Below the pieces are notes generated by a model that was not told the DNA's origin, searched no databases, and was given only the letters and a program-made list of their open reading frames with translations. Below, one piece after another: positions 1-10,003 of a stretch of DNA of 10,003 nucleotides (within the stretch, counting starts at the first letter, position 1; each line of letters starts with the position of its first letter). The translations under genes and the position numbers were made by a program. This stretch comes from a virus (Duplodnaviria > Heunggongvirae > Uroviricota > Caudoviricetes): the IMG/VR virus record IMGVR_UViG_2711768001_000003; one strand, 5' to 3'.

Positions 1-69
1 ATATCTACGGCAGCAAGCCAGTAATGGGTTAAGTGATAACAGGTGTCTGGAAATATAGGGGCAAATCCA
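1..69 (+). mobile_element. Right terminus of an IS2-like insertion sequence (IS3 family); partial, the element continues upstream of the window
   Basis: Bases 1-69 (ATATCTACGGCAGCAAGCCAGTAATGGGTTAAGTGATAACAGGTGTCTGGAAATATAGGGGCAAATCCA) match my recollection of the IS2 right end, which finishes ...TTAAGTGATAACAGATGTCTGGAAATATAGGGGCAAATCCA. There are a few substitutions. Similarity stops at 69. Confidence 0.75.
2..58 (+). CDS. C-terminal 18 codons of the IS2-like transposase OrfB (5' part outside the window)
   Basis: The frame starting at 2 reads YLRQQASNGLSDNRCLEI, then TAG at 56-58. The recalled IS2 OrfB C-terminus is ...EYLRQRACNGLSDNRCLEI*. Confidence 0.65.
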   Translation, partial: YLRQQASNGLSDNRCLEI

Positions 70-177
70 GCGTTCATCAGCCCCCGCATTGCCGACAGGA
101 TCACAGACGGGGGGCGCAACTGGTTGTCGTTCAACTGGCCCAGCTACCGTTCTTGTATCAGAGGTGTGGCTGCATGA
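70..177 (+). pseudogene. 3' remnant (35 codons) of the gene upstream of the helicase, probably the replication initiator, truncated by the IS2-like element
   Basis: The frame is open from the IS boundary (AFISPRIADRITDGGRNWLSFNWPSYRSCIRGVAA*). Its TGA at 175-177 overlaps the helicase ATG at 174 as ATGA, the usual translational-coupling junction in lambdoid replication modules. No start codon is available because the IS abuts at 69/70. The product is not recognised. Confidence 0.5.
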
Positions 178-1565
178 CAACACCAGTCTGGCGTAATGAT
201 GACCTGGAAGGCGCTGTCATTGGCGCATTCTTTCTGCGTGGGGCAGATCATGAAGTGATGGATATTCTGATCACACTACCGGCGGACATTTTTTCTGTAC
301 GAGCGTATCGGGATATCTACACAGGCATCTGCAGACAGGCCCGTGTTTCAGGAGTGATTGACCCCGTGCTGTTGTGTAATGAGATGCCGGAACTTGCCCC
401 GGTGATTACTGATACCGGGCGTAAAACCTGGGTGAAGTCTTCACTGGAGCACTATGTTGCAGCGTTGCGGCGCAATGCCGCACTGCGCGATGCAGAAAAA
501 ACACTGAATGAGGCGCTGCAGAAATTACGTGATGCGCATACCTGTGAAGCAGCTGAAGATGCCCTGAAGGATGCGCAGAACATGATGGTCACACTGTCGA
601 CAGGAAAGGGCGTCATTCAGCCGGTACATATTGATGATGTGCTTCCGGAAGTGGTTGAGCGTGTTGAATGCCGGAATCAGGGGCTGGAGAAATCCAGGAC
701 GTTGATGACCGGTATTGATGAACTGGACGCAAAAACAGGCGGTATGGAGCCCGGAGACCTGGTATTCATTGCCGCCCGTCCTTCGATGGGGAAAACCGAA
801 CTTGCGCTGGACATCATCGACAAGGTGACTGAGCAGGGGCATGGTGTGCTTCTGTTCACCATGGAGATGGCGAACATCCAGATTGGTGAACGTATGGTGT
901 CTGCGGCTGGAGGGATGCCAGTATCACGCCTGAAATCTGTGGCTCACTTTGAAGATGAAGACTGGGCGCGTTTCTCACAAGGGGTGGGGCGGATGACCGG
1001 GCGCAATATCTGGATGGTGGACCAGGCGAACCTGACCATTGATGAGATATGCGCAACAACGAAACACCATCTGATTAAACATCCGGAAACGGCGCTGGTG
1101 GTGGTTGATTATCTCGGGCTGATAAAAACCCGAACCACGGGGCGTCATGACCTTGCCGTGGGTGAAATCTCAAAGGGGCTTAAAGGCCTGGCAAAATCCG
1201 GTGGTTTTCCGTTGATTGCGCTGAGCCAGCTCTCCCGCGGTGTGGAGTCCAGACCCAATAAACGTCCCATGAACTCAGACCTGAAAAATTCCGGAGAAAT
1301 AGAGGCGGATGCAGACATCATTCTGATGCTTTACAGGGATGAAGTGTACAACCCGGATACACAGGCTACAGGCATAGCAGAAATTAATATCACGAAACAA
1401 CGTAACGGTTCTCTGGGGACGATTTACCGGCGTTTTTATAACGGACATTTTCTGCCTGTGGACCAGGAAAGCGCACAGGTTCTTTCCACCCCAATGCGGC
1501 AGCCCCAGCCGCGCAGATACAGCAATACACGTACCGACAGCAGTAAGATGGAGCGTTTCTTTTGA
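174..1565 (+). CDS. DnaB-family replicative DNA helicase (phage P22 gp12-like)
   Basis: 463 aa from ATG 174. It has the Walker A motif GDLVFIAARPSMGKTELAL, the DnaB-type motifs VVVDYLGLI and ALSQLSR, and ADADIILMLYRDEVY. The ORF-track start at 33 lies inside the IS terminal repeat and is rejected. Confidence 0.9.
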   Translation: MTTPVWRNDDLEGAVIGAFFLRGADHEVMDILITLPADIFSVRAYRDIYTGICRQARVSGVIDPVLLCNEMPELAPVITDTGRKTWVKSSLEHYVAALRRNAALRDAEKTLNEALQKLRDAHTCEAAEDALKDAQNMMVTLSTGKGVIQPVHIDDVLPEVVERVECRNQGLEKSRTLMTGIDELDAKTGGMEPGDLVFIAARPSMGKTELALDIIDKVTEQGHGVLLFTMEMANIQIGERMVSAAGGMPVSRLKSVAHFEDEDWARFSQGVGRMTGRNIWMVDQANLTIDEICATTKHHLIKHPETALVVVDYLGLIKTRTTGRHDLAVGEISKGLKGLAKSGGFPLIALSQLSRGVESRPNKRPMNSDLKNSGEIEADADIILMLYRDEVYNPDTQATGIAEINITKQRNGSLGTIYRRFYNGHFLPVDQESAQVLSTPMRQPQPRRYSNTRTDSSKMERFF

Positions 1566-1576
1566 ACAACCAGACA

Positions 1577-1819
1577 ATGACTTTTACCTCTGAACAATTG
1601 CGTAAACACGCGCAGGAAATGTTGCGACAGGCGGAACAACTGGAAAAAACAGGTGTAACAAAAGATGCCATTCGTCGGGATATGGTGCCAGCGCTCAGGG
1701 AACTGATGCAGGCGAAACATCGCGCACAAAAAGCGGTGGATGAGCTCGTTGATTGTGTGGCAGAGCTGGAAACCAAAGTTGGAAAGTTTGAAAAAATGGT
1801 GCAGGAGGTGCTGCGCTGA
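1577..1819 (+). CDS. Hypothetical 80-aa all-helical (coiled-coil-like) protein
   Basis: The ORF sits between the helicase and rusA, and its stop TGA (1817-1819) overlaps the rusA ATG as TGATG. An alternative TTG start at 1562 overlaps the helicase stop. No family recognised. Confidence 0.55.
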   Translation: MTFTSEQLRKHAQEMLRQAEQLEKTGVTKDAIRRDMVPALRELMQAKHRAQKAVDELVDCVAELETKVGKFEKMVQEVLR

Positions 1820-2190
1820 TGCGCCATGAGTTTATTTTACCTTATCCGCCGACGGTGAATACTTACTGGCGACGTCGTGGCAGCACATATTTTGTATCAA
1901 AAGTTGGTGAGCGTTATCGCCGTGATGTGACGCTAATTGTTCGCCAGCAGCGGCTGAAATTAAACCTGTCCGGAAGGCTGGCGATAAAGATTATTGCAGA
2001 GCCACCGGATAAGCGCCGTCGTGACCTGGACAATATCCTGAAAGCACCACTGGATGCGCTGACGCATGCCGGACTACTCATAGACGACGAGCAGTTTGAT
2101 GAAATCAATATTGTGCGCGGTCAGCTCGTTCCTGGTGGGCGACTGGGCGTGAAGATTTATGAAATCACAGGTGATAACGATGGCGCGTGA
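1819..2190 (+). CDS. rusA: Crossover junction endodeoxyribonuclease RusA (Holliday junction resolvase)
   Basis: The 123-aa product shows RusA hallmarks: [45 protein letters not shown] and GGRLGVKI. It is collinear with E. coli DLP12 RusA. AGGAGG at 1803-1808 lies upstream of the ATG. Confidence 0.92.
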
Positions 2191-2566
2191 TATTCAGCAG
2201 GTTATGGAACGGTGGGGGGCTTGGGCTGCAAACACTCATGAAGATGTATCCTGGGCGTCGATCGCTGCTGGTTTTAAAGGGTTAATTCCGTCGAAAGTGA
2301 AATCACGCCCTCAGTGTTCTGATGATGATGCAATGATAATTTGTGGCTGTATGGCCCGGTTGAACAAGAAAAATCAGGATTTGCACGATTTGCTGGTGGA
2401 TTATTACGTAGGTGGAATGACTTTTATGAGTCTGGCACGGAAACATGGGTGTTCGGATACCTGTATTGGCAAGCGCCTGCAGAAAGCGGAAGGGGTTATT
2501 GATGGCATGTTGATGATGCTTGATATCCGGCTGGAGATGGACAGATACGTAGAACGAATTATGTAG
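2180..2566 (+). CDS. Late-gene antitermination protein Q (QuuD/DLP12-type)
   Basis: [23 protein letters not shown]...[20 protein letters not shown]...[20 protein letters not shown]...[10 protein letters not shown] is nearly collinear with recalled E. coli QuuD. ATG 2180 has AGGTGA 6 nt upstream and overlaps the rusA 3' end by 11 nt. The ORF-track start at 2159 is less likely. Confidence 0.88.
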
Positions 2567-2570
2567 GTGC

Positions 2571-2600
2571 TTGACCAGACACATTGTCCGGGGCTATATT
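2571..2600 (+). promoter_or_regulatory. Candidate late promoter PR' (sigma70)
   Basis: TTGACC (2571-2576), an 18-nt spacer, then TATATT (2595-2600), beginning 5 nt after the Q stop codon. Lambdoid PR' lies in this position. The Q-binding and pause elements are not resolved. Confidence 0.6.
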
Positions 2601-2606
2601 CCTCAC

Positions 2607-2684
2607 GCGCCAGCAAAATCTGGCGTCGGGATTGGAACCCCGGATAGAGACCGCGACAGACACACGCCGCGAGCGTGTTTTTTA
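2607..2684 (+). ncRNA. Predicted short PR'-to-tR' transcript (lambda 6S RNA / StxS-like), about 77 nt
   Basis: Inferred from the predicted TSS about 7 nt after the -10 and the intrinsic terminator at 2662-2684. It contains a 5' hairpin CGCCAG-CAAAAT-CTGGCG (2608-2625) and a second imperfect hairpin at 2626-2644. The ends are predicted, not observed. Confidence 0.4.
2662..2684 (+). terminator. Rho-independent terminator (candidate tR')
   Basis: Stem ACACGC (2662-2667) / GCGTGT (2673-2678), 5-nt loop CGCGA, followed by a T-run (TTTTTTA). Confidence 0.6.
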
Positions 2685-2811
2685 TTGTCGTATGCACGCG
2701 CACATCTGAATTATGGTGGGGCGCATGGGGGAGCTGAAAAGCTCGCCGGTCGGTTTCCCGGTAGTTCCAACCCTGTGCGTCTCACCACCCGATGATTGGA
2801 ACCTGACGGTG

Positions 2812-2840
2812 TTGACAGTTTCAGGTTTGCAGTTTACATT
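2812..2840 (+). promoter_or_regulatory. Candidate sigma70 promoter for the ORF6N-domain gene (moron promoter)
   Basis: Perfect -35 TTGACA (2812-2817), 17-nt spacer, -10 TACATT (2835-2840, 4/6 match). Confidence 0.4.
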
Positions 2841-3040
2841 TCCCCGCGGTGCTCAAAACACCTCGAAAGCGGTATCCACACCCGATAGCCATGTGGTTTT
2901 TTTGTGTCCAGAATTCTTGGTTTATGACCGGGTGTGCGGCTAATACAATACCAGCAATGGAAATACGCCCGCCGACTTTCGACGGTTTTGAGCGCCCGGT
3001 CACCCTCTCAAAAGGGGTAAATCAAAATATTCGAAAGGAC

Positions 3041-3610
3041 ATGTCTATGAATCGCACGTCTATTGAAAAACTCCCGTCACTTACGCATAACCATCTTCCT
3101 GTCATGACAACAGAGCTGCTGGCTGATTTGTACGGAACAGAGCGCCAGCGTTTGACAAACAATTTCAATCGAAACAAAGAACGGTTTATAGAAGGTAAAC
3201 ATTTTTTCCTGATAGAAGGTGATGCGTTACGAGAGTTGAAGAACGAAAACTCTTTAAGAGTTTCTGTGAAAATTGCCCGTAACGTTCGCTCCCTCATCCT
3301 CTGGACAGAACGTGGCGCAGCCCGTCACGCCAAAATGCTCGAAACCGATCAGGCGTGGGAAGTGTTCGAAAAACTGGAAGACTGTTATTTCAACCAGAAA
3401 CAGCCACCAGCGGCACAAAACACATCTATCGAAAATGATGGATGCGCATTACTGAGCCACTTCGATAAACACGGTCAGGTTGAGTTCACGGAAAAGGTAC
3501 CCGCCGATGCGATGGTATGTACTCTGGAACGGTTTAAATTTTATCTGGAGCAACACGGGTGGATCGTTGCCCGTAAAGAGCAACTGGTGGAGCGGTTGAT
3601 GCGGTTTTAA
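3041..3610 (+). CDS. ORF6N-domain (KilA-N-like DNA-binding) protein, putative antirepressor-like; C-terminal half unassigned
   Basis: LPVMTTELLADLYGTERQRLTNNFNRNKERFIEGKHFFLIEGDALRELK...SLILWTERGAARHAKMLETDQAWEVFEKLEDCYF fits the ORF6N pattern. AAGGA at 3035-3039 favours ATG 3041 or, with better spacing, ATG 3047. The ORF-track GTG at 2849 adds 64 residues that do not look like protein. Confidence 0.8.
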   Translation: MSMNRTSIEKLPSLTHNHLPVMTTELLADLYGTERQRLTNNFNRNKERFIEGKHFFLIEGDALRELKNENSLRVSVKIARNVRSLILWTERGAARHAKMLETDQAWEVFEKLEDCYFNQKQPPAAQNTSIENDGCALLSHFDKHGQVEFTEKVPADAMVCTLERFKFYLEQHGWIVARKEQLVERLMRF

Positions 3611-3685
3611 AAATTTTTTCCGAAAACTTTACGATCGTAAAAAGTTGAATATCCTGTTAAGAGTGGTTACTACGCCACACAGCTT

Positions 3686-3711
3686 AAACCCGCCGATGAG
3701 CGGGTTTTTTT
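3686..3711 (+). terminator. Rho-independent terminator downstream of the ORF6N gene
   Basis: AAACCCGC (3686-3693), loop CGATGA, GCGGGTTT (3700-3707), extending into a run of 8 T. Confidence 0.8.
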
Positions 3712-3761
3712 ATACCTGAAAAACGGCACAGGACGTTAAACGTGCTGGTGGTCAGATGAGT

Positions 3762-3790
3762 TTGCAGATGTGATGACATATGGTTATTAT
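3762..3790 (+). promoter_or_regulatory. Weak candidate promoter for the tRNA array
   Basis: TTGCAG (3762-3767), 17-nt spacer, TATTAT (3785-3790). The predicted TSS is a few nt before the first tRNA at 3800. The -35 matches only 3/6. Confidence 0.3.
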
Positions 3791-3799
3791 TCTGCCTCC

Positions 3800-3876
3800 G
3801 GCCCTTTAGCTCAGTTGGTCAGAGCGAGCGACTCATAATCGCCAGGTCGCTGGTTCAAGTCCAGCAAGGGCCACCA
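3800..3876 (+). tRNA. tRNA with CAT anticodon, most like tRNA-Ile2 (lysidine-modified, reads AUA; ileX/ileZ-like)
   Basis: It folds as a cloverleaf: acceptor GGCCCTT/AAGGGCC, anticodon loop CTCATAA, T-arm GCTGG-TTCAAGT-CCAGC, encoded CCA. The anticodon and T arms resemble recalled E. coli ileX far more than elongator tRNA-Met. Confidence 0.85.
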
Positions 3877-3877
3877 A

Positions 3878-3954
3878 CCACCACTAGCTCATCCGGATAG
3901 AGCATCAACCTTCTAAGTTGACGGTGCGAGGTTCGAGTCCTCGGTGGTGGGCCA
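3878..3954 (+). tRNA. tRNA-Arg (anticodon TCT, reads AGA/AGG)
   Basis: Cloverleaf: acceptor CCACCAC/GTGGTGG, D-arm GCTC-ATCCGGATA-GAGC, anticodon arm TCAAC-CTTCTAA-GTTGA, T-arm CGAGG-TTCGAGT-CCTCG, discriminator G, encoded CCA. It has an unusual C1:G72 pair and diverges from host argU. It starts 1 nt after the previous tRNA. Confidence 0.85.
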
Positions 3955-3956
3955 GC

Positions 3957-4032
<76 letters not shown>

Positions 4033-4035
4033 TAT

Positions 4036-4110
<75 letters not shown>

Positions 4111-4243
4111 GCGAGATTTGAGACGAAGGTTGTTATTTGCACTGACACAATATTGTGTGGGAATGTCTGACTCCTTACCATCTCCTGTTCTGTGATGTTG
4201 TTTTGTTGCAGTTCCAGTGCTCTTTTTTCAGCACCAGAATGGT

Positions 4244-4769
4244 NNNNNNNNNNNNNNNNNNNNNNNNNNNNNNNNNNNNNNNNNNNNNNNNNNNNNNNNN
4301 NNNNNNNNNNNNNNNNNNNNNNNNNNNNNNNNNNNNNNNNNNNNNNNNNNNNNNNNNNNNNNNNNNNNNNNNNNNNNNNNNNNNNNNNNNNNNNNNNNNN
4401 NNNNNNNNNNNNNNNNNNNNNNNNNNNNNNNNNNNNNNNNNNNNNNNNNNNNNNNNNNNNNNNNNNNNNNNNNNNNNNNNNNNNNNNNNNNNNNNNNNNN
4501 NNNNNNNNNNNNNNNNNNNNNNNNNNNNNNNNNNNNNNNNNNNNNNNNNNNNNNNNNNNNNNNNNNNNNNNNNNNNNNNNNNNNNNNNNNNNNNNNNNNN
4601 NNNNNNNNNNNNNNNNNNNNNNNNNNNNNNNNNNNNNNNNNNNNNNNNNNNNNNNNNNNNNNNNNNNNNNNNNNNNNNNNNNNNNNNNNNNNNNNNNNNN
4701 NNNNNNNNNNNNNNNNNNNNNNNNNNNNNNNNNNNNNNNNNNNNNNNNNNNNNNNNNNNNNNNNNNNNN
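4244..4769. other. Run of 526 N (assembly gap or masked sequence)
   Basis: Counted directly from the sequence: the first n is at 4244 and the last at 4769. Confidence 1.
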
Positions 4770-4871
4770 ATTGGTGTGCTGGGAAGTCTGCTTCTGGGGC
4801 TTCTGACTTATCTGACAAATCTGTATTTCAAAATAAGAGAAGACAAGCGTAAGGCTGCGAGAGGTGAATAA
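4770..4871 (+). CDS. S: Phage-21-type class II holin (pinholin S21-like), 3' 33 codons only; the 5' part lies in the N run
   Basis: The visible [33 protein letters not shown] matches the recalled C-terminus of S21/EssD (...[33 protein letters not shown]). The stop TAA overlaps the endolysin ATG as TAATG. A 71-aa holin would start near 4656. Confidence 0.85.
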
Positions 4872-5368
4872 TGTCGCCATCATTACGCAAGGCTGTTGCA
4901 GCTGCTATTGGTGGTGGGGCTGTTGCTATAGCATCTGTGTTAATCACTGGCCCAGGTGGTAACGATGGTCTGGAAGGTGTCAGCTACATACCATACAAAG
5001 ATATCATTGGTGTATGGACTGTATGTCACGGACACACCGGAAAAGACATCATGCTCGGTAAAACGTATACCGAAGCAGAATGCAAAGCCCTCCTGAATAA
5101 AGACCTTGCCACTGTCGCCAGACAAATTAACCCGTACATCAAAGTCGATATACCGGAAACAACGCGCGGCGCTCTTTACTCGTTCGTTTACAACGTGGGC
5201 GCTGGCAATTTCAGAACATCGACGCTTCTTCGCAAAATAAACCAGGGCTATATCAAAGGCGCATGTGACCAGCTATGTCGCTGGACATATGCTGGCGGTA
5301 AGCAATGGAAAGGGCTGATGACCCGTCGTGAGATTGAGCGTGAAGTCTGTTTGTGGGGGCAGCAATGA
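4871..5368 (+). CDS. R: SAR endolysin (phage 21 R21 / RrrD-like lysozyme, T4-lysozyme fold)
   Basis: The 165-aa product has an N-terminal Gly/Ala-rich signal-arrest-release segment ([20 protein letters not shown]). The catalytic region [24 protein letters not shown] is nearly collinear with recalled R21. Confidence 0.92.
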
Positions 5369-5829
5369 GCAGAGTCACCGCGATTATCTCCGCTCTGGTT
5401 ATCTGCATCATCGTCTGCCTGTCATGGGCTGTTAATCATTACCGTGATAACGCCATTACCTACAAAGAGCAGCGCGACAAAAACGCAAGAGAACTGAAGC
5501 TGGCGAACGCAACCATTACTGACATGCAGCAGAGACAGCGTGATGTTAATGCACTCGATGCTAAATACACGAAGGAGTTAGCTGATGCGAAAGCTGAAAA
5601 TGAAACTCTGCGCGCTGATGTTGCCGCTGGTCGTCGTCGGTTGCACATCAAAGCAGTCTGTCAGTCAGTGCGTGAAGCCACCACCGCCTCCGGCGTGGAT
5701 AATGCAACCAGCCCCCGACTGGCAGACACCGCTGAACGGGATTATTTCACCCTCAGAGAGCGGCTGATGACGATGCAGATGCAACTGGAAGGGGCACAGG
5801 AGTATATCCGCACTCAGTGCATTAAGTAG
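5365..5829 (+). CDS. Rz: i-spanin Rz
   Basis: [21 protein letters not shown] is an N-terminal TM segment, followed by a coiled-coil periplasmic domain similar to lambda Rz. ATG 5365 overlaps the endolysin stop as ATGA. Confidence 0.9.
5585..5767 (+). CDS. Rz1: o-spanin Rz1 (lipoprotein), fully embedded in Rz in the +1 frame
   Basis: The 60-aa product [60 protein letters not shown] has a lipobox (VVGC) and a proline-rich segment. It is almost identical to recalled lambda Rz1. Confidence 0.9.
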
Positions 5830-5871
5830 CCTTTTTATCGTGGTAAACATTTCGCAGGGTATGAGGTATTT

Positions 5872-6222
5872 ATGCCATCACTAATCCCACGTGCCTGCCG
5901 TAAGCGTGGATGTGCAGGTACAACCACAGACAGTTCGGGTTACTGCGATAAACATCGCGGTGAAGGCTGGGTGCAGCACCAGCGCGGACTGAGCCGCCAC
6001 CAGCGTGGCTATGGCTCAAAATGGACGGTGATTCGTGCCCGTATTCTGAAGCGCGATAAAGGTCTGTGTCAGTTGTGTCTGCGTGTCGGTGTGGTGAGCG
6101 AGGCGAAAACCGTCGACCACATCATCCCGAAAGCGCATGGCGGAACAGACGCAGACAGCAACCTGCAGAGTCTGTGCTGGCCCTGCCATAAAGCGAAAAC
6201 AGCGCGCGAACGAATCCGGTGA
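5872..6222 (+). CDS. HNH endonuclease (packaging-associated, HK97 gp74-like position)
   Basis: It has the HNH motif DHIIPKAHGG...N...LCWPCHKAKT plus N-terminal Cys pairs. GAGG lies 5 nt upstream of the ATG. The gene sits immediately upstream of the terminase genes. Confidence 0.88.
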   Translation: MPSLIPRACRKRGCAGTTTDSSGYCDKHRGEGWVQHQRGLSRHQRGYGSKWTVIRARILKRDKGLCQLCLRVGVVSEAKTVDHIIPKAHGGTDADSNLQSLCWPCHKAKTARERIR

Positions 6223-6244
6223 TAATTATTCTCACTTGTAGGGA

Positions 6245-6304
6245 GGGGCGGGGCAAATCCCTGTGACCTGACGTCTTCCGGACTGCCCGCCCCATCGTTT
6301 TTTT
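6245..6304 (+). other. GC-only interrupted inverted repeat followed by T7; candidate cos-region element or terminator
   Basis: GGGGCGGGGCA (6245-6255) pairs with TGCCCGCCCC (6284-6293) as 10 bp with one bulge. The spacer is 28 nt, followed by ATCG and then TTTTTTT (6298-6304). It lies in the 121-nt HNH-terS intergenic region. Confidence 0.35.
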
Positions 6305-6343
6305 ATACCCGCGAAAAATGAAATTTAACCAGGAGTGCCGCAT

Positions 6344-6838
6344 ATGGCTGGAACGGCGGGGCGTTCCGGGCGTCGCCCCAAGCCAACGGCGCGCAAGGCG
6401 CTGGCCGGAAACCCCGGCAAGCGAGCCCTGAACAAAGATGAACCTGTTTTTACGCCCATCAAAGGTGTTGAGCCACCAGAGTGGTTCGCTGAAGAAGATC
6501 TCCCTCTCGCCACGATCATGTGGCAACTGACAACCAAAGAACTCTGCGGTCAGGGCCTGCTGTGCGTGACTGACCTGGCGGTACTTGAGCGGTGGTGCGT
6601 GGCCTATGAGTTCTGGCGACGTGCCGTGAAAAATATTGCCATACAGGGCAACACCATCACCGGTGCAATGGGCGGCAGGGTCAAAAATCCGGAGCTGACC
6701 GCCAAAAAAGAACAGGAGTCCGAGATGAGCAGCACGGGGGCAATGCTCGGACTCGACCCCAGCAGCCGCCAGCGTCTGATTGGCCTGGCGGGGCAGAAGA
6801 AAGCCACTAACCCGTTTCTGAAAATTATCGAATCATGA
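6344..6838 (+). CDS. Terminase small subunit, P27 family
   Basis: [34 protein letters not shown] is the typical P27-family N-terminus. AGGAG at 6331-6335 lies 8 nt upstream of ATG 6344. The ORF-track GTG at 6335 overlaps that SD and is less likely. Confidence 0.88.
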
Positions 6839-8568
6839 GCCGGAAATCTTACCCCAACGTAAATGCTGCAAATCAGTATGCCCGGGATGTCGTGCGCGGA
6901 AAGATTGTTGCCTGCCAGTTTGTGATTCAGGCCTGCCAGCGCCATCTTGATGACCTGATGGCGGAAAAAAGTAAGTCGTTTCGTTACCGCTTCGACAAGG
7001 ACCTGGCTGAACGGGCCGCGAAATTTATTCAGCTGTTGCCGCACACCAAGGGGGAGTGGGCATTCAAACGGATGCCCATCACGCTGGAGCCGTGGCAGCT
7101 ATTTGTGATCTGCTGTGCGTTTGGCTGGGTCAATAAAGGCACCCGGTTGCGCCGCTTCCGGGAGGTGTACACCGAAATCCCCCGTAAGAACGGCAAATCA
7201 GCAATCTCTGCCGGTGTTGCCCTGTATTGTTTTGCCTGTGATAACGAGTTTGGCGCGGAAGTGTATTCCGGTGCCACGACAGAGAAACAGGCGTGGGAAG
7301 TCTTTCGCCCGGCGCGACTGATGTGTAAACGCACACCCATGCTGACGGAAGCGTTCGGGATTGAGGTTAACGCCTCAAACATGAACCGTCCGGAGGATGG
7401 CGCGCGGTTTGAACCGCTGATCGGCAACCCAGGTGATGGTTCATCACCCCACTGTGCCGTGGTTGATGAATATCACGAGCATGCCACCGATGCGCTTTAT
7501 ACCACAATGCTTACCGGGATGGGGGCGCGACGTCAGCCACTGATGTGGGCCATCACCACCGCCGGGTACAACATTGAGGGGCCGTGCTACGACAAGCGGC
7601 GGGAAGTCATCGAGATGCTCAACGGCTCGGTGCCTAACGATGAACTGTTCGGGATCATCTATACCGTTGATGAAGGTGACGACTGGACCGGCCCGCAGGT
7701 GCTGGAAAAAGCCAATCCAAATATTGGCGTGTCGGTTTATCGCGAATTTTTGTTAAGTCAGCAGCAGCGTGCGAAAAATAACGCCCGTCTGGCAAACGTC
7801 TTTAAAACAAAACACCTCAATATCTGGGTGTCGGCGCGTTCGGCGTATTTCAACTTGGTGAGCTGGCAGAGCTGCGAGGATAAATCACTGACCCTTGAGC
7901 AGTTCGAGGGGCAGCCGTGCATTCTGGCCTTTGACCTGGCGCGTAAGCTGGATATGAACAGCATGGCGCGACTTTATACCCGCGAGATTGACGGTAAAAC
8001 GCATTACTACAGTGTGGCCCCGCGTTTCTGGGTACCGTATGACACGGTGTACAGCGTCGAGAAAAATGAAGATCGACGGACAGCCGAACGCTTTCAGAAA
8101 TGGGTGGAAATGGGCGTTCTGACCGTTACCGATGGTGCGGAGGTGGATTATCGCTACATCCTCGAGGAGGCCAAAGCGGCGAACAAAATCAGCCCGGTCA
8201 GTGAGTCACCCATCGACCCCTTCGGGGCGACCGGGTTGTCACATGACCTTGCTGATGAAGACCTGAATCCCGTCACTATCGTCCAGAACTTCACCAATAT
8301 GTCCGATCCGATGAAAGAGCTGGAAGCAGCGATTGAATCGGGACGTTTTCATCATGACGGCAATCCCATCATGACCTGGTGTATCGGCAACGTGGTCGGC
8401 AAAAACATGCCGGGTAACGATGATGTGGTGAAACCCGTCAAAGAGCAGGCGGAAAACAAAATCGATGGTGCAGTTGCGCTGATTATGGCGGTTGGCAGAG
8501 CCATGCTGTACGAGAAAGAAGACACGCTGTCTGACCACATTGAGTCCTACGGGATCCGCTCGCTTTAA
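6835..8568 (+). CDS. Terminase large subunit (HK97/Terminase_1-type)
   Basis: The 577-aa product has the Walker A-like motif [14 protein letters not shown] and the Walker B/coupling motif AVVDEYHEH, plus a C-terminal nuclease region ([10 protein letters not shown]). The start overlaps the terS stop as ATGA. Confidence 0.9.
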
Positions 8569-8579
8569 CTGAGGTAATT

Positions 8580-8762
8580 ATGATCATGCTGATTCTCGCG
8601 CCTCTGGTGGGCGTGCTGGGTGCGCTTTTGCTGGCGTATGGTGCCTGGCTGATTTATCCCCCGGCGGGTTTTGTTGTTGCCGGGGCGCTGTGCCTGTTCT
8701 GGTCGTGGCTGGTGGCGCGATATCTCGACCGTACACGGCAGTCTGTCGGCGGAGGTAAATAG
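8580..8762 (+). CDS. Small (60 aa) two-TM membrane protein, function unknown
   Basis: [49 protein letters not shown] has two hydrophobic helices. GAGG lies upstream of the ATG. The stop TAG (8760-8762) overlaps the portal GTG start by 1 nt. Confidence 0.6.
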
Positions 8763-9918
8763 TGTTCTTTTCGGGATTATTTCAACGAAAAAGCGATGTG
8801 CCGGTGACCACGCCAGCAGAACTGCTGATGCTATCGGGCTGTCATACGACACCTATACCGGAAAGCGGATCAGTAGCCAGCGGGCCATGCGCCTGACGGC
8901 GGTCTATTCTTGCGTCAGGGTGCTGGCAGAGTCTGTTGGTATGCTGCCCTGCAGTCTCTACAAAATCAGCGGTACCCTGAAAACACGGGCGGTGGATGAA
9001 CGACTGCATAAGTTGGTTTCGGCAAAACCTAATGGCTACATGACACCGCAGGAATTCTGGGAGCTGGTTATTGTCTGCCTGTGTCTACGGGGGAATTTTT
9101 ACGCCTACAAGGTAAAGGCACTGGGAGAAGTGGTGGAGCTTCTTCCGATAGATCCGGGCTGTGTGGAACCGAAGCTGAACAGCCAGTGGCAGCCGGTTTA
9201 TCAGGTGACGTTTCCGGATGGTTCCGTGGATGTGTTGACCCAGAATGAAATCTGGCATGTGCGCACCCTGACGCTGGATGGACTTGTCGGGCTGAATCCC
9301 ATTGCGTATGCGCGTGAGGCCATTTCACTGGCAGCGGCAACCGAGGAGCACGGTGCCAGGTTGTTTAGTAATGGTGCGGTGACATCCGGTGTGTTGCGTA
9401 CGGAACAAAAGCTCACGCCGGATGCTTACGAGCGTCTGAAGAAAGATTTTGAGGAGTGTCACACGGGGCTTGGCAATGCTCACCGCCCGATGATTCTGGA
9501 AATGGGGCTGGACTGGAAGTCGATGGCGCTGAACGCCGAGGACAGTCAGTTCCTGGAAACCCGCAAGTTTCAGCTGGAAGAAATCTGTCGTCTGTTCCGG
9601 GTGCCGTTGCACATGGTGCAGAACACCGATCGCGCCACCTTCAACAATATCGAAGAGCTGGGGCTGGGATTTATCAACTATTCACTGGTGCCGTATCTGA
9701 CCCGCATCGAACAGCGGATCAACACCGGACTGGTACGAAAAAGTAAGCAGGGCGTTTATTACGCCAAATTTAACGCCGGGGCGTTACTGCGCGGGGATAT
9801 GAAGTCCCGTTTTGAAGCCTACGCCACCGGGATCAACTGGGGAATTTACTCTTCCAATGACTGCCGCGACCTGGAAGATATGAATCCGCGTCCCGGTGGT
9901 GTAATGCCGATCAGTTAA
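8762..9918 (+). pseudogene. HK97-family portal protein gene, apparently frameshifted near 8824 and 3'-truncated by IS4 at about 9901/9902
   Basis: A strong SD GGAGG (8751-8755) sits 6 nt before GTG 8762. That frame gives a portal-like N-terminus [21 protein letters not shown] but stops at 8894-8896. The portal body (ADAIGLSYDTYTGKRISSQRAMRLTAVYSCVRVLAESVG...) continues in the -1 frame from 8824. The last 5 codons and the stop (VMPIS*) are read from IS4 sequence. Confidence 0.8.
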
Positions 9919-9950
9919 GGATCAGTTGACCGATCCAGTGGCTGTGTAAG

Positions 9951-9985
9951 AATCCGGAAACGCTCACTTGTTTCCGGATTTTTTT
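9951..9985 (+). terminator. Strong terminator-like hairpin inside the IS4 left end, immediately before the transposase ATG
   Basis: A perfect 11-bp stem AATCCGGAAAC (9951-9961) / GTTTCCGGATT (9970-9980) with an 8-nt loop, followed by a T-run that extends to 9985 and abuts ATG 9986. Confidence 0.6.
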
Positions 9986-10003
9986 ATGCACATTGGACAG
10001 GCT
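9986..10003 (+). CDS. insG: IS4 transposase InsG, first 6 codons (3' part outside the window)
   Basis: ATG CAC ATT GGA CAG GCT translates as MHIGQA, which matches the recalled InsG start MHIGQALDLV.... Confidence 0.65.

Follow-up and report, generated by a model that had tools for sequence, protein, structure and literature searches.

The 10,003-nt stretch analysed here (the window; IMG/VR record IMGVR_UViG_2711768001_000003, Duplodnaviria; Heunggongvirae; Uroviricota; Caudoviricetes) ends on its right in a phage portal gene that breaks off at the first 102 bp of the insertion sequence (IS) IS4. The features around this junction are collected in Table 1. An earlier note, made from the letters alone, had proposed that IS4 was inserted into the 3′ end of the portal gene. 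Very probably, IS4 inserted into the portal gene, the locus was later rearranged by recombination between IS4 copies, and the 102 bp visible in the window are the control region of IS4.

Table 1. Features of the window that bear on the portal gene, on IS4 and on the left boundary of the prophage remnant.
Feature	Positions	Strand	Details
IS2 right end (last 70 bp)	1-70		left boundary of remnant
Portal pseudogene, HK97-type, 5′ part	8762-9901	+	alignment to E. coli A36 portal; GTG start 8762
Left copy of 12-bp target duplication, GTCCCGGTGGTG	9890-9901	+	second copy after IS4 right end in L100
IS4, first 102 bp of 1,426-bp element	9902-10003	+	identical to annotated reference L002:3013-3114
Left terminal inverted repeat, 18 bp, TAATGCCGATCAGTTAAG	9902-9919	+	16/18 match to right repeat TAATGCCAGTCAGTTAAG
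Three GATC (Dam target) sites	9909-9935	.	at 9909, 9920, 9932; spacing 11 and 12 bp
Predicted sigma-70 promoter of transposase	9926-9953	+	TTGACC 9926-9931, 16-nt spacer, TG-n-AAGAAT 9948-9953
Leader hairpin	9948-9985	+	arms 9948-9962, 9969-9983; G+C core 9953-9961, 9970-9978
Transposase start, MHIGQA, six codons	9986-10003	+	ATG at 9986

The portal gene follows the gene of the large terminase subunit in the order TerL, ymfR, portal. Its DNA is 92% identical to annotated Escherichia coli portal genes, and PF04860 is recorded on the called portal product in relatives. The gene is broken twice. The first break is a 1-nt deletion near 8825 relative to the portal of E. coli A36; the first 21 codons are out of frame with the rest, and their frame stops at 8894. 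As this deletion is common to all Shigella sonnei-type loci and to L100, an IMG/VR contig described below, it is not a sequencing error of this window. The second break is IS4 itself at 9901/9902, where portal sequence ending in ...ccgcgtcccggtggtg is followed directly by the IS4 sequence taatgccgatcagttaaggatcagttgaccgatccagtgg... The frameshift and the truncation by IS4 together mean that the portal gene should be annotated as a pseudogene.

The second breakpoint is exact. Portal similarity, which the earlier note had let end at about 9901, reaches precisely that nucleotide; the insertion point is portal codon 380, and the last 33 codons are cut off. The fused frame reads PRPGG-VMPIS and then stops at 9916-9918, as had been read from the letters. 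In E. coli A36, 101 nt follow beyond the breakpoint to the gene's own stop, after which come genes for the HK97 prohead protease, the capsid and the tail. With positions 9003-10003 of the window as query, at least 80% was covered in 1,091 E. coli genomes, with the annotation "phage portal protein". Among the matches listed, portal homology ended at query positions 897-899 (window 9899-9901), and none of the E. coli genomes matching this query spans the junction of portal gene and IS4. A portal homologue that ends naturally in ...GGVMPIS, without any insertion, had been named as one of two findings that would speak against the proposal. Only the open reading frame (ORF) itself supports such an end, whose probability we regard as negligible, because intact homologues run on for 33 more codons and the sequence from 9902 onwards is a multicopy IS4 end present in 2,591 E. 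coli genomes.

That count comes from the last 113 nt of the window, which were matched in 2,591 of the 5,426 E. coli genomes under the RefSeq name "IS4-like element IS4 family transposase". The IS4 sequence starts at 9902 with TAATGCCGATCAGTTAAGG..., the left end of the element, and its identity to the annotated reference confirmed that the window ends in IS4. The reference IS4 (L002:3013-4438) is 1,426 bp long, starts with TAATGCC, ends with GGCATTA and is flanked by a 13-bp target duplication; relatives have full-length copies that match it at 99.5-99.6% identity over the 1,426 bp. Other IS4 copies have target duplications of 11 and 13 bp. The IS4 subgroup is defined by the end signature -AATR and a duplication of 10-13 bp (PMC2266710), and both the end signature and the duplication length found here agree with this definition. 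The window stops 102 bp into the element, and the right end was observed in relatives. The two terminal repeats differ only at positions 8-9 (GA on the left vs AG on the right), so that the left end has GATC and the right end AGTC. The inverted repeat is likely the site at which the transposase acts. The transposase start MHIGQA lies exactly where the earlier note had placed it; only these six codons fall within the window, and the full protein of 442 amino acids in relatives comprises PF13006 (Nterm_IS4) and PF01609 (DDE_Tnp_1). At the right end of all IS4-subgroup elements a conserved palindrome, CCAGTCAGTT-GC-TTAACTGACTGG (e.g., L002 4410-4438), shares sequence with both the right inverted repeat and the stop codon of the transposase gene; being nearly invariant in its stem, it is without covariation evidence.

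The right junction of the original insertion event is preserved in L100. When IMG/VR was searched for the pattern IS4 right end, 0-3 nt and TCCCGGTGGTG, this was the one contig found; it reads ...ctgactggcatta (IS4 right end), gtcccggtggtg (12-bp copy of 9890-9901) and atgtctatctcacaccgatgaac... (portal remainder). Beyond the duplication lie the 101-nt remainder of the portal gene, a protease of 228 amino acids, a capsid protein of 401 amino acids and lambda-like tail genes. A right junction with a 12-bp duplication means that the original event was a normal IS4 transposition, that is, a simple insertion that duplicated 12 bp. The left part of L100 (2400-2900) has a different structure: the unoccupied site (ggtggGgatg) is read through into the protease gene, and after it come a single "n" and then IS4 from within the leader hairpin, with the loop inverted. 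This left part is probably a scaffold or assembly join, made from a genome or population with both an empty and an occupied site. The occupied right junction comes next in the contig and is not affected by it.

As a target, the portal site is unusual. In most cases IS4 and its relatives target the loops of G+C-rich hairpins between A and T runs (bidirectional terminators), examples being aaaaaaggtgctcattgagcacctttttt between yfjF and bamE and aaaacggcagcccttgagctgccgtttttt between bamD and raiA (seen in L093 and L094 at 2200-2225 and 3651-3675, and in the left flanks of L013-L092). At such hairpin targets the duplication often ends in ...G[GC][TA]G adjoining the left repeat. The IS4 of the window, unlike these known terminator-like targets, sits inside a coding sequence.

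S. sonnei-type chromosomes, CP000038.1 among them, match the window at 99.96-100% identity. Positions 1-4243 are 100% identical to S. sonnei-type chromosomal loci, and positions 4770-10003 differ from locus L010 by two single-nucleotide polymorphisms (SNPs), both within the lysozyme gene. By exact look-up, the large terminase of the window is present in thousands of assemblies, among them complete chromosomes such as CP000038.1, and the helicase of the window led to HE616528.1; we take these two records to be S. sonnei Ss046 and S. sonnei 53G, respectively. The window as a whole is present neither in a complete E. coli genome nor in a phage record, the best matches being phiP27-like and SfII/SfIV-like modules. 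The exact junction had 0 matches in the GTDB species-representative genomes, where the source lineage is not a representative.

In all ten readable near-identical complete chromosomes, the right end of the portal-linked IS4 adjoins chromosomal genes. In six of them the right flank is gctcattgagcac..., followed by bamE-recN-nadK-grpE, and in the other four it is cagcccttgagctg..., followed by raiA-pheL-pheA-tyrA-aroF. The portal-linked IS4 is full length in the near-identical chromosomes, and neither the target duplication nor the portal remainder was found at its right end in the ten. In E. coli, the same two right junctions are ordinary, duplication-flanked IS4 sites: IS4 lies between yfjF and bamE in 3 genomes (11-bp duplication) and between bamD and raiA in 337 genomes (13-bp duplication). 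A chromosomal flank that lacks both duplication and portal remainder, at what are ordinary IS4 sites in E. coli, means that IS4 now marks a rearrangement junction. The rearrangement was most likely a homologous recombination between IS4 copies, and the most economical reading of the present IS4 is a hybrid, with a left flank from the phage and a right flank from the chromosome. For a simple insertion, the earlier note had predicted that the IS4 right end would lead into an 11-13 bp repeat of ...CCCGGTGGTG, the rest of the portal codons and a prohead protease gene; this arrangement is seen in L100, with 12 bp, and is absent from the ten chromosomes. Its other suggestion, a deletion junction that removed the head and tail genes, applies to what is now seen in so far as the junction does separate these genes from the remnant, whether by deletion or by inversion.

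Two observations limit this reading. The window ends 102 bp into IS4, and its rearranged state is read from its relatives; moreover, L100, the sole contig with the reciprocal junction, proves the right junction but provides no clean intact insertion. The genome from which the window derives could thus have kept the simple insertion, with IS4 followed by the duplication, the last 33 codons of the portal gene and the genes for head and tail, in which case GGCATTA would be followed by GTCCCGGTGGTGATGTC... Such a structure is present at least once in public data (L100) and is compatible with the window itself. We nevertheless consider it quite improbable, since all ten readable chromosomes have the bamE or raiA flank, and since the window shows no difference from L006 over 8000-10003 and two SNPs relative to L010.

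We lean towards an inversion that moved the distal, head-tail half of the prophage elsewhere, because yfjF-ratA-smpB-ssrA is also gone from its usual place beside bamE. The alternative, outright deletion of the distal half via two directly oriented IS4 copies, is possible if somewhat doubtful. It is consistent with the absence, in relatives, of the portal remainder from roughly 8 kb on the right of the junction and roughly 20 kb on its left, and with the heavy decay of the remnant in other respects (IS2 at its left edge, three IS1 copies upstream, the portal frameshift). Three points argue against it. With yfjF-ratA-smpB-ssrA absent between bamE and the remnant, a deletion would have included smpB and ssrA, a costly loss that makes inversion more plausible. 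The gene orders of the bamE and raiA types differ as an inversion from raiA to bamE between inverted IS4 copies predicts, a conclusion drawn from gene orders and from the K-12 gene map. Finally, UniRef labels a protease identical to that of L100 as Shigella sonnei. A relocated distal half would show GGCATTA-GTCCCGGTGGTG-ATGTCTATC... elsewhere. The reciprocal junction had 0 matches in the JGI metagenomes, and the left and right junctions were absent from the 5,426 complete E. coli genomes. Look-ups of the capsid cluster representative P0121 and of the L100 protease returned intact E. coli prophages only and no S. sonnei chromosomes. IS4 left junctions on the yfjF or bamD side had 0 matches in IMG/VR, and for this reason the inversion is without proof.

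Taken in order, the events at the locus would be as follows. In a Shigella (S. sonnei-type) lineage that carried a lambdoid prophage, IS4 would have transposed into portal codon 380, duplicating the 12 bp listed in Table 1 and replacing the last 33 portal residues by VMPIS and a stop. Recombination with chromosomal IS4 copies (at yfjF/bamE and bamD/raiA) would then have split the prophage into two halves, and the remnant would have been left between IS2 and the hybrid IS4, whose right side leads into bamE or raiA in relatives. The strain-variable junction with its bamE or raiA flank is useful for the structural typing of S. sonnei, and a recombination junction in IS4 explains why draft assemblies break here.

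The portal-linked IS4 has itself been a target in some strains. In some S. sonnei-type strains it is split by IS2 at IS4 position ~1120 (L003-L005 and L009-L011, ~14190-15521), and in HE616528.1 by a different element of the IS3 family (L097, ~20991-21392), so that nested IS insertions in IS4 differ between strains.

The 102 bp of IS4 contain, between the inverted repeat and the transposase gene, a predicted sigma-70 promoter that would drive the transposase gene. A promoter scan of 9700-10003 returned this as the only promoter-like site (1 found vs 0.2 expected). Relatives whose transposases are 55-58% identical have a diverged spacer sequence but retain both hexamers and the distance between them.

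Directly before the ATG lies a conserved hairpin resembling a terminator, which adds to what the earlier note had described. It reads AAGAAUCCGGAAACG-loop-UGUUUCCGGAUUUUU, then two more U and AUG, and folds as a 15-bp stem followed by T7, the T-run at 9979-9985 reaching the ATG. Its 5′ arm overlaps the -10 box of the predicted promoter, and its 3′ arm contains the GGA of the likely ribosome-binding site. The 102-nt IS4 RNA folds with -38.9 kcal/mol (z = -5.1). Among 24 relatives the stem varies in sequence with its pairing kept (CCGGAAAC, CCAGAAAC, CCGGTGATC, CCGGTATCAG, CCCTGTCAG, CTGAGTTC and others): 96.7% of the cells are paired vs 76% in shuffles, and 11 of the 14 stem pairs have compensatory changes on both sides. 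None of 500 shuffles reached any of the observed covariation values, and the signal collapsed when the partner columns were slid against each other. No Rfam family matches the IS4 leader hairpin.

The overlap with the promoter suggests which transcripts could form this structure. As the -10 hexamer opens the 5′ arm, a transcript that starts about 7 nt downstream of it (~9959-9961) would be without that arm. RNA from the predicted start folds with -7.3 kcal/mol (z = +1.7) and is less structured than the shuffled controls; RNA that starts 16 nt upstream of the predicted start forms the hairpin (-26.5 kcal/mol). The hairpin with its T-run would accordingly be limited to transcripts begun upstream of the element's own start site, and might serve as an insulator: read-through from the portal gene, which has the same orientation, would be terminated or have its ribosome-binding site buried, and the element's own mRNA would be translated. 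The structure is shown by covariation, and insulation is the simplest model of its function. Two results fit the termination part of this model poorly. A scan for consensus terminators found 0 terminators, possibly since the stem runs into the T-run, and Halomonas relatives have the stem without the T-run, which means that the conserved property is the pairing and not termination.

The three GATC sites, which the earlier note had located within 27 nt with two of them in a repeat, are placed around the same promoter. The repeat is the 8-mer GATCAGTT at 9909 and 9920, so the three sites are not independent of each other. Site 1 (9909) lies inside the inverted repeat at repeat positions 8-11, site 2 ends 3 nt before the -35 box, and site 3 begins directly after it. 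Three GATC in 27 nt were obtained in 65 of 5,000 mononucleotide shuffles of IS4 (1.3%), and elsewhere in the window the tightest GATC triple takes up 93 nt. With spacings of about one helical turn, all three sites face the same side of the helix. On hemimethylated DNA, SeqA prefers such a one-face geometry of GATC sites, and it possibly binds those of IS4.

To follow the sites across relatives, left ends were taken from 80 loci. The arrangement TAATGCC-GATC-AGTTAAG-GATC-nnTTGAmC-GATC is kept in all but two of the left ends derived from Enterobacterales, the exceptions being a deletion variant (L041) and a Brenneria copy with AGTC at site 1 (L030). The triple is also present in elements with 55-58% identity from Corallincola, Ferrimonas and Pseudaeromonas (Alteromonadales and Aeromonadales), orders regarded as carrying Dam, SeqA and MutH. 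Elements without the triple were found in Halomonas, Desulfobulbaceae, Legionellaceae, Sphingobacterium and several metagenome-assembled genomes, many of them with AGTC at site 1. In a rough neighbour-joining tree the GATC-bearing elements do not form one clade. Among 11 distinct GATC-bearing left ends from Enterobacterales, Aeromonadales and Alteromonadales, 0 of 12 GATC columns were variable vs 15 of 34 other columns (p = 0.004).

These comparisons lend moderate support to the idea that Dam modulates IS4, a question on which, going by the sequence, we find the balance close and tilted slightly to the negative. If Dam acts, control of the promoter is more likely than an effect on transposase binding. 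The earlier note had connected the sites with Dam-sensitive binding of the transposase; this suits site 1 in the repeat, and for sites 2 and 3, which flank the -35 box, promoter control fits better. With a -35 box bracketed by GATC and a further GATC in the repeat, Dam, and possibly SeqA, may couple transposase expression or the use of the end to replication. In IS10 and IS50, Dam methylation of promoter GATC sites limits the transcription of the transposase gene (PMC4265352; PMC9296519).

A role of Dam has to be weighed against several results. The GATC evidence is weak in that the terminal 34 bp are nearly all conserved, and within them GATC columns do not significantly exceed the neighbouring columns in conservation (5 of 22 other columns variable, p = 0.09). 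The correlation between host and GATC sites is confounded by the phylogeny of the elements, and the Dam status of the orders is textbook knowledge. The literature searched gave no published effect of Dam on IS4 itself. It is nearly an even call that the sites are unrelated to Dam and are conserved through the transposase-binding repeat, with its 8-mer occurring twice, and through the neighbourhood of the -35 box. The right end, which functions with AGTC in place of GATC in every relative, and the left ends of the Halomonas type, which also have AGTC, point the same way. Against this reading, elements with 55% transposase identity still have the triple, at distances of 11 and 12 bp, although the intervening and following bases have changed, and all hosts in which it was seen come from orders regarded as Dam-positive. 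Some relatives have a fourth GATC inside the -35 box (TTGATC), and there is precedent for Dam control within the IS4 family in IS10 and IS50.

Combining hairpin and GATC sites, we tentatively propose, with rather low confidence, that the left 84 bp of IS4-subgroup elements constitute an undescribed two-part switch. One part would be a promoter caged by GATC sites, controlled by Dam and SeqA and coupled to replication; the other would be the hairpin, silencing transcripts that enter from outside; and the GATC sites would have been lost in Dam-negative hosts. The covariation of the leader hairpin and a GATC triplet that tracks presumed Dam-positive orders form a testable hypothesis on the regulation of the founder of the IS4 family.

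Such a switch would have parallels in other elements. IS10 and IS50, like IS4, have GATC in or near promoter elements and the terminal repeat at the transposase-proximal end, in a Dam-positive host; in this placement IS4 resembles the Dam-regulated IS of the IS10, IS50 and IS903 type. The GATC sites of IS10 and IS50 overlap the -10 region, whereas the three of IS4, all in helical phase, comprise a pair around the -35 box and a single site in the repeat. Dam dependence has been shown for IS10 and IS50, and for IS4 it may be suspected from the arrangement of the sites. In the "fold-back inhibition" of IS10 and IS50, the ribosome-binding site is sequestered in impinging transcripts. IS200 has a left-end terminator against impinging transcription (PMC4513863). 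All three share with IS4 a transposase-proximal stem-loop that forms only in transcripts entering from outside and covers the ribosome-binding site. IS4 differs from them in that a single hairpin would combine a T-run with burial of the ribosome-binding site, and in that the 5′ arm overlaps the -10 box.

The element in the window does not differ from the IS4 of E. coli and Shigella, having the same inverted repeat and, in relatives, the same transposase of 442 amino acids. IS1, IS2, IS4, IS600 and IS911 are the five IS that have expanded across all Shigella species (PMC7373316). The decay seen here is the same in kind as the IS-driven prophage decay known from Shigella (Hawkey et al. 2020, PMC7373316; Seferbekova et al. 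2021, PMC8072062), including a remnant bounded by IS2 and IS4, IS2 inside IS4 in some strains and the exchange of flanks between IS copies. The truncated portal gene is an example of this ordinary and already known process; the IS4 copy is an ordinary, already annotated feature, and the insertion as such has little importance beyond annotation.

The remnant between IS2 on the left and IS4 on the right measures 9.8 kb and belongs to a decayed, non-inducible lambdoid prophage with an HK97-type head from an S. sonnei-type lineage. Upstream of it in relatives are ypjC and pinH, both chromosomal genes, and three copies of IS1. Near the left edge, the ORF of 510 amino acids at 33-1565 is an artefact that starts in IS2, the real gene of the DnaB-type helicase being 174-1565.

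Positions 4244-4769, between the tRNA cluster and the holin gene, consist of 526 masked N, in place of which relatives have 661 bp (L010 7275-7935). Tandem repeats had been considered as the cause of the overlapping ORFs at 4155-4883 and were rejected, as the stretch is a run of N; the ORFs listed on both strands within it are artefacts.

Between the gene of antiterminator Q and a gene with an ORF6N domain, four Rfam matches at gathering level were found: c4-a1b1 (2594-2646), isrK (2607-2683), C4 antisense RNA (2709-2792) and sRNA-Xcc1 (2926-3009). The region 2594-3009 looks like a P1/P7-type C4 antirepressor-control cassette within the lambdoid remnant. Further downstream of Q, at 3800-4110, lie four phage-borne tRNA genes (Met-CAT, Arg-TCT, Thr-TGT and Gly-TCC), in the position where Shiga toxin (Stx) phages have their tRNA and toxin genes.

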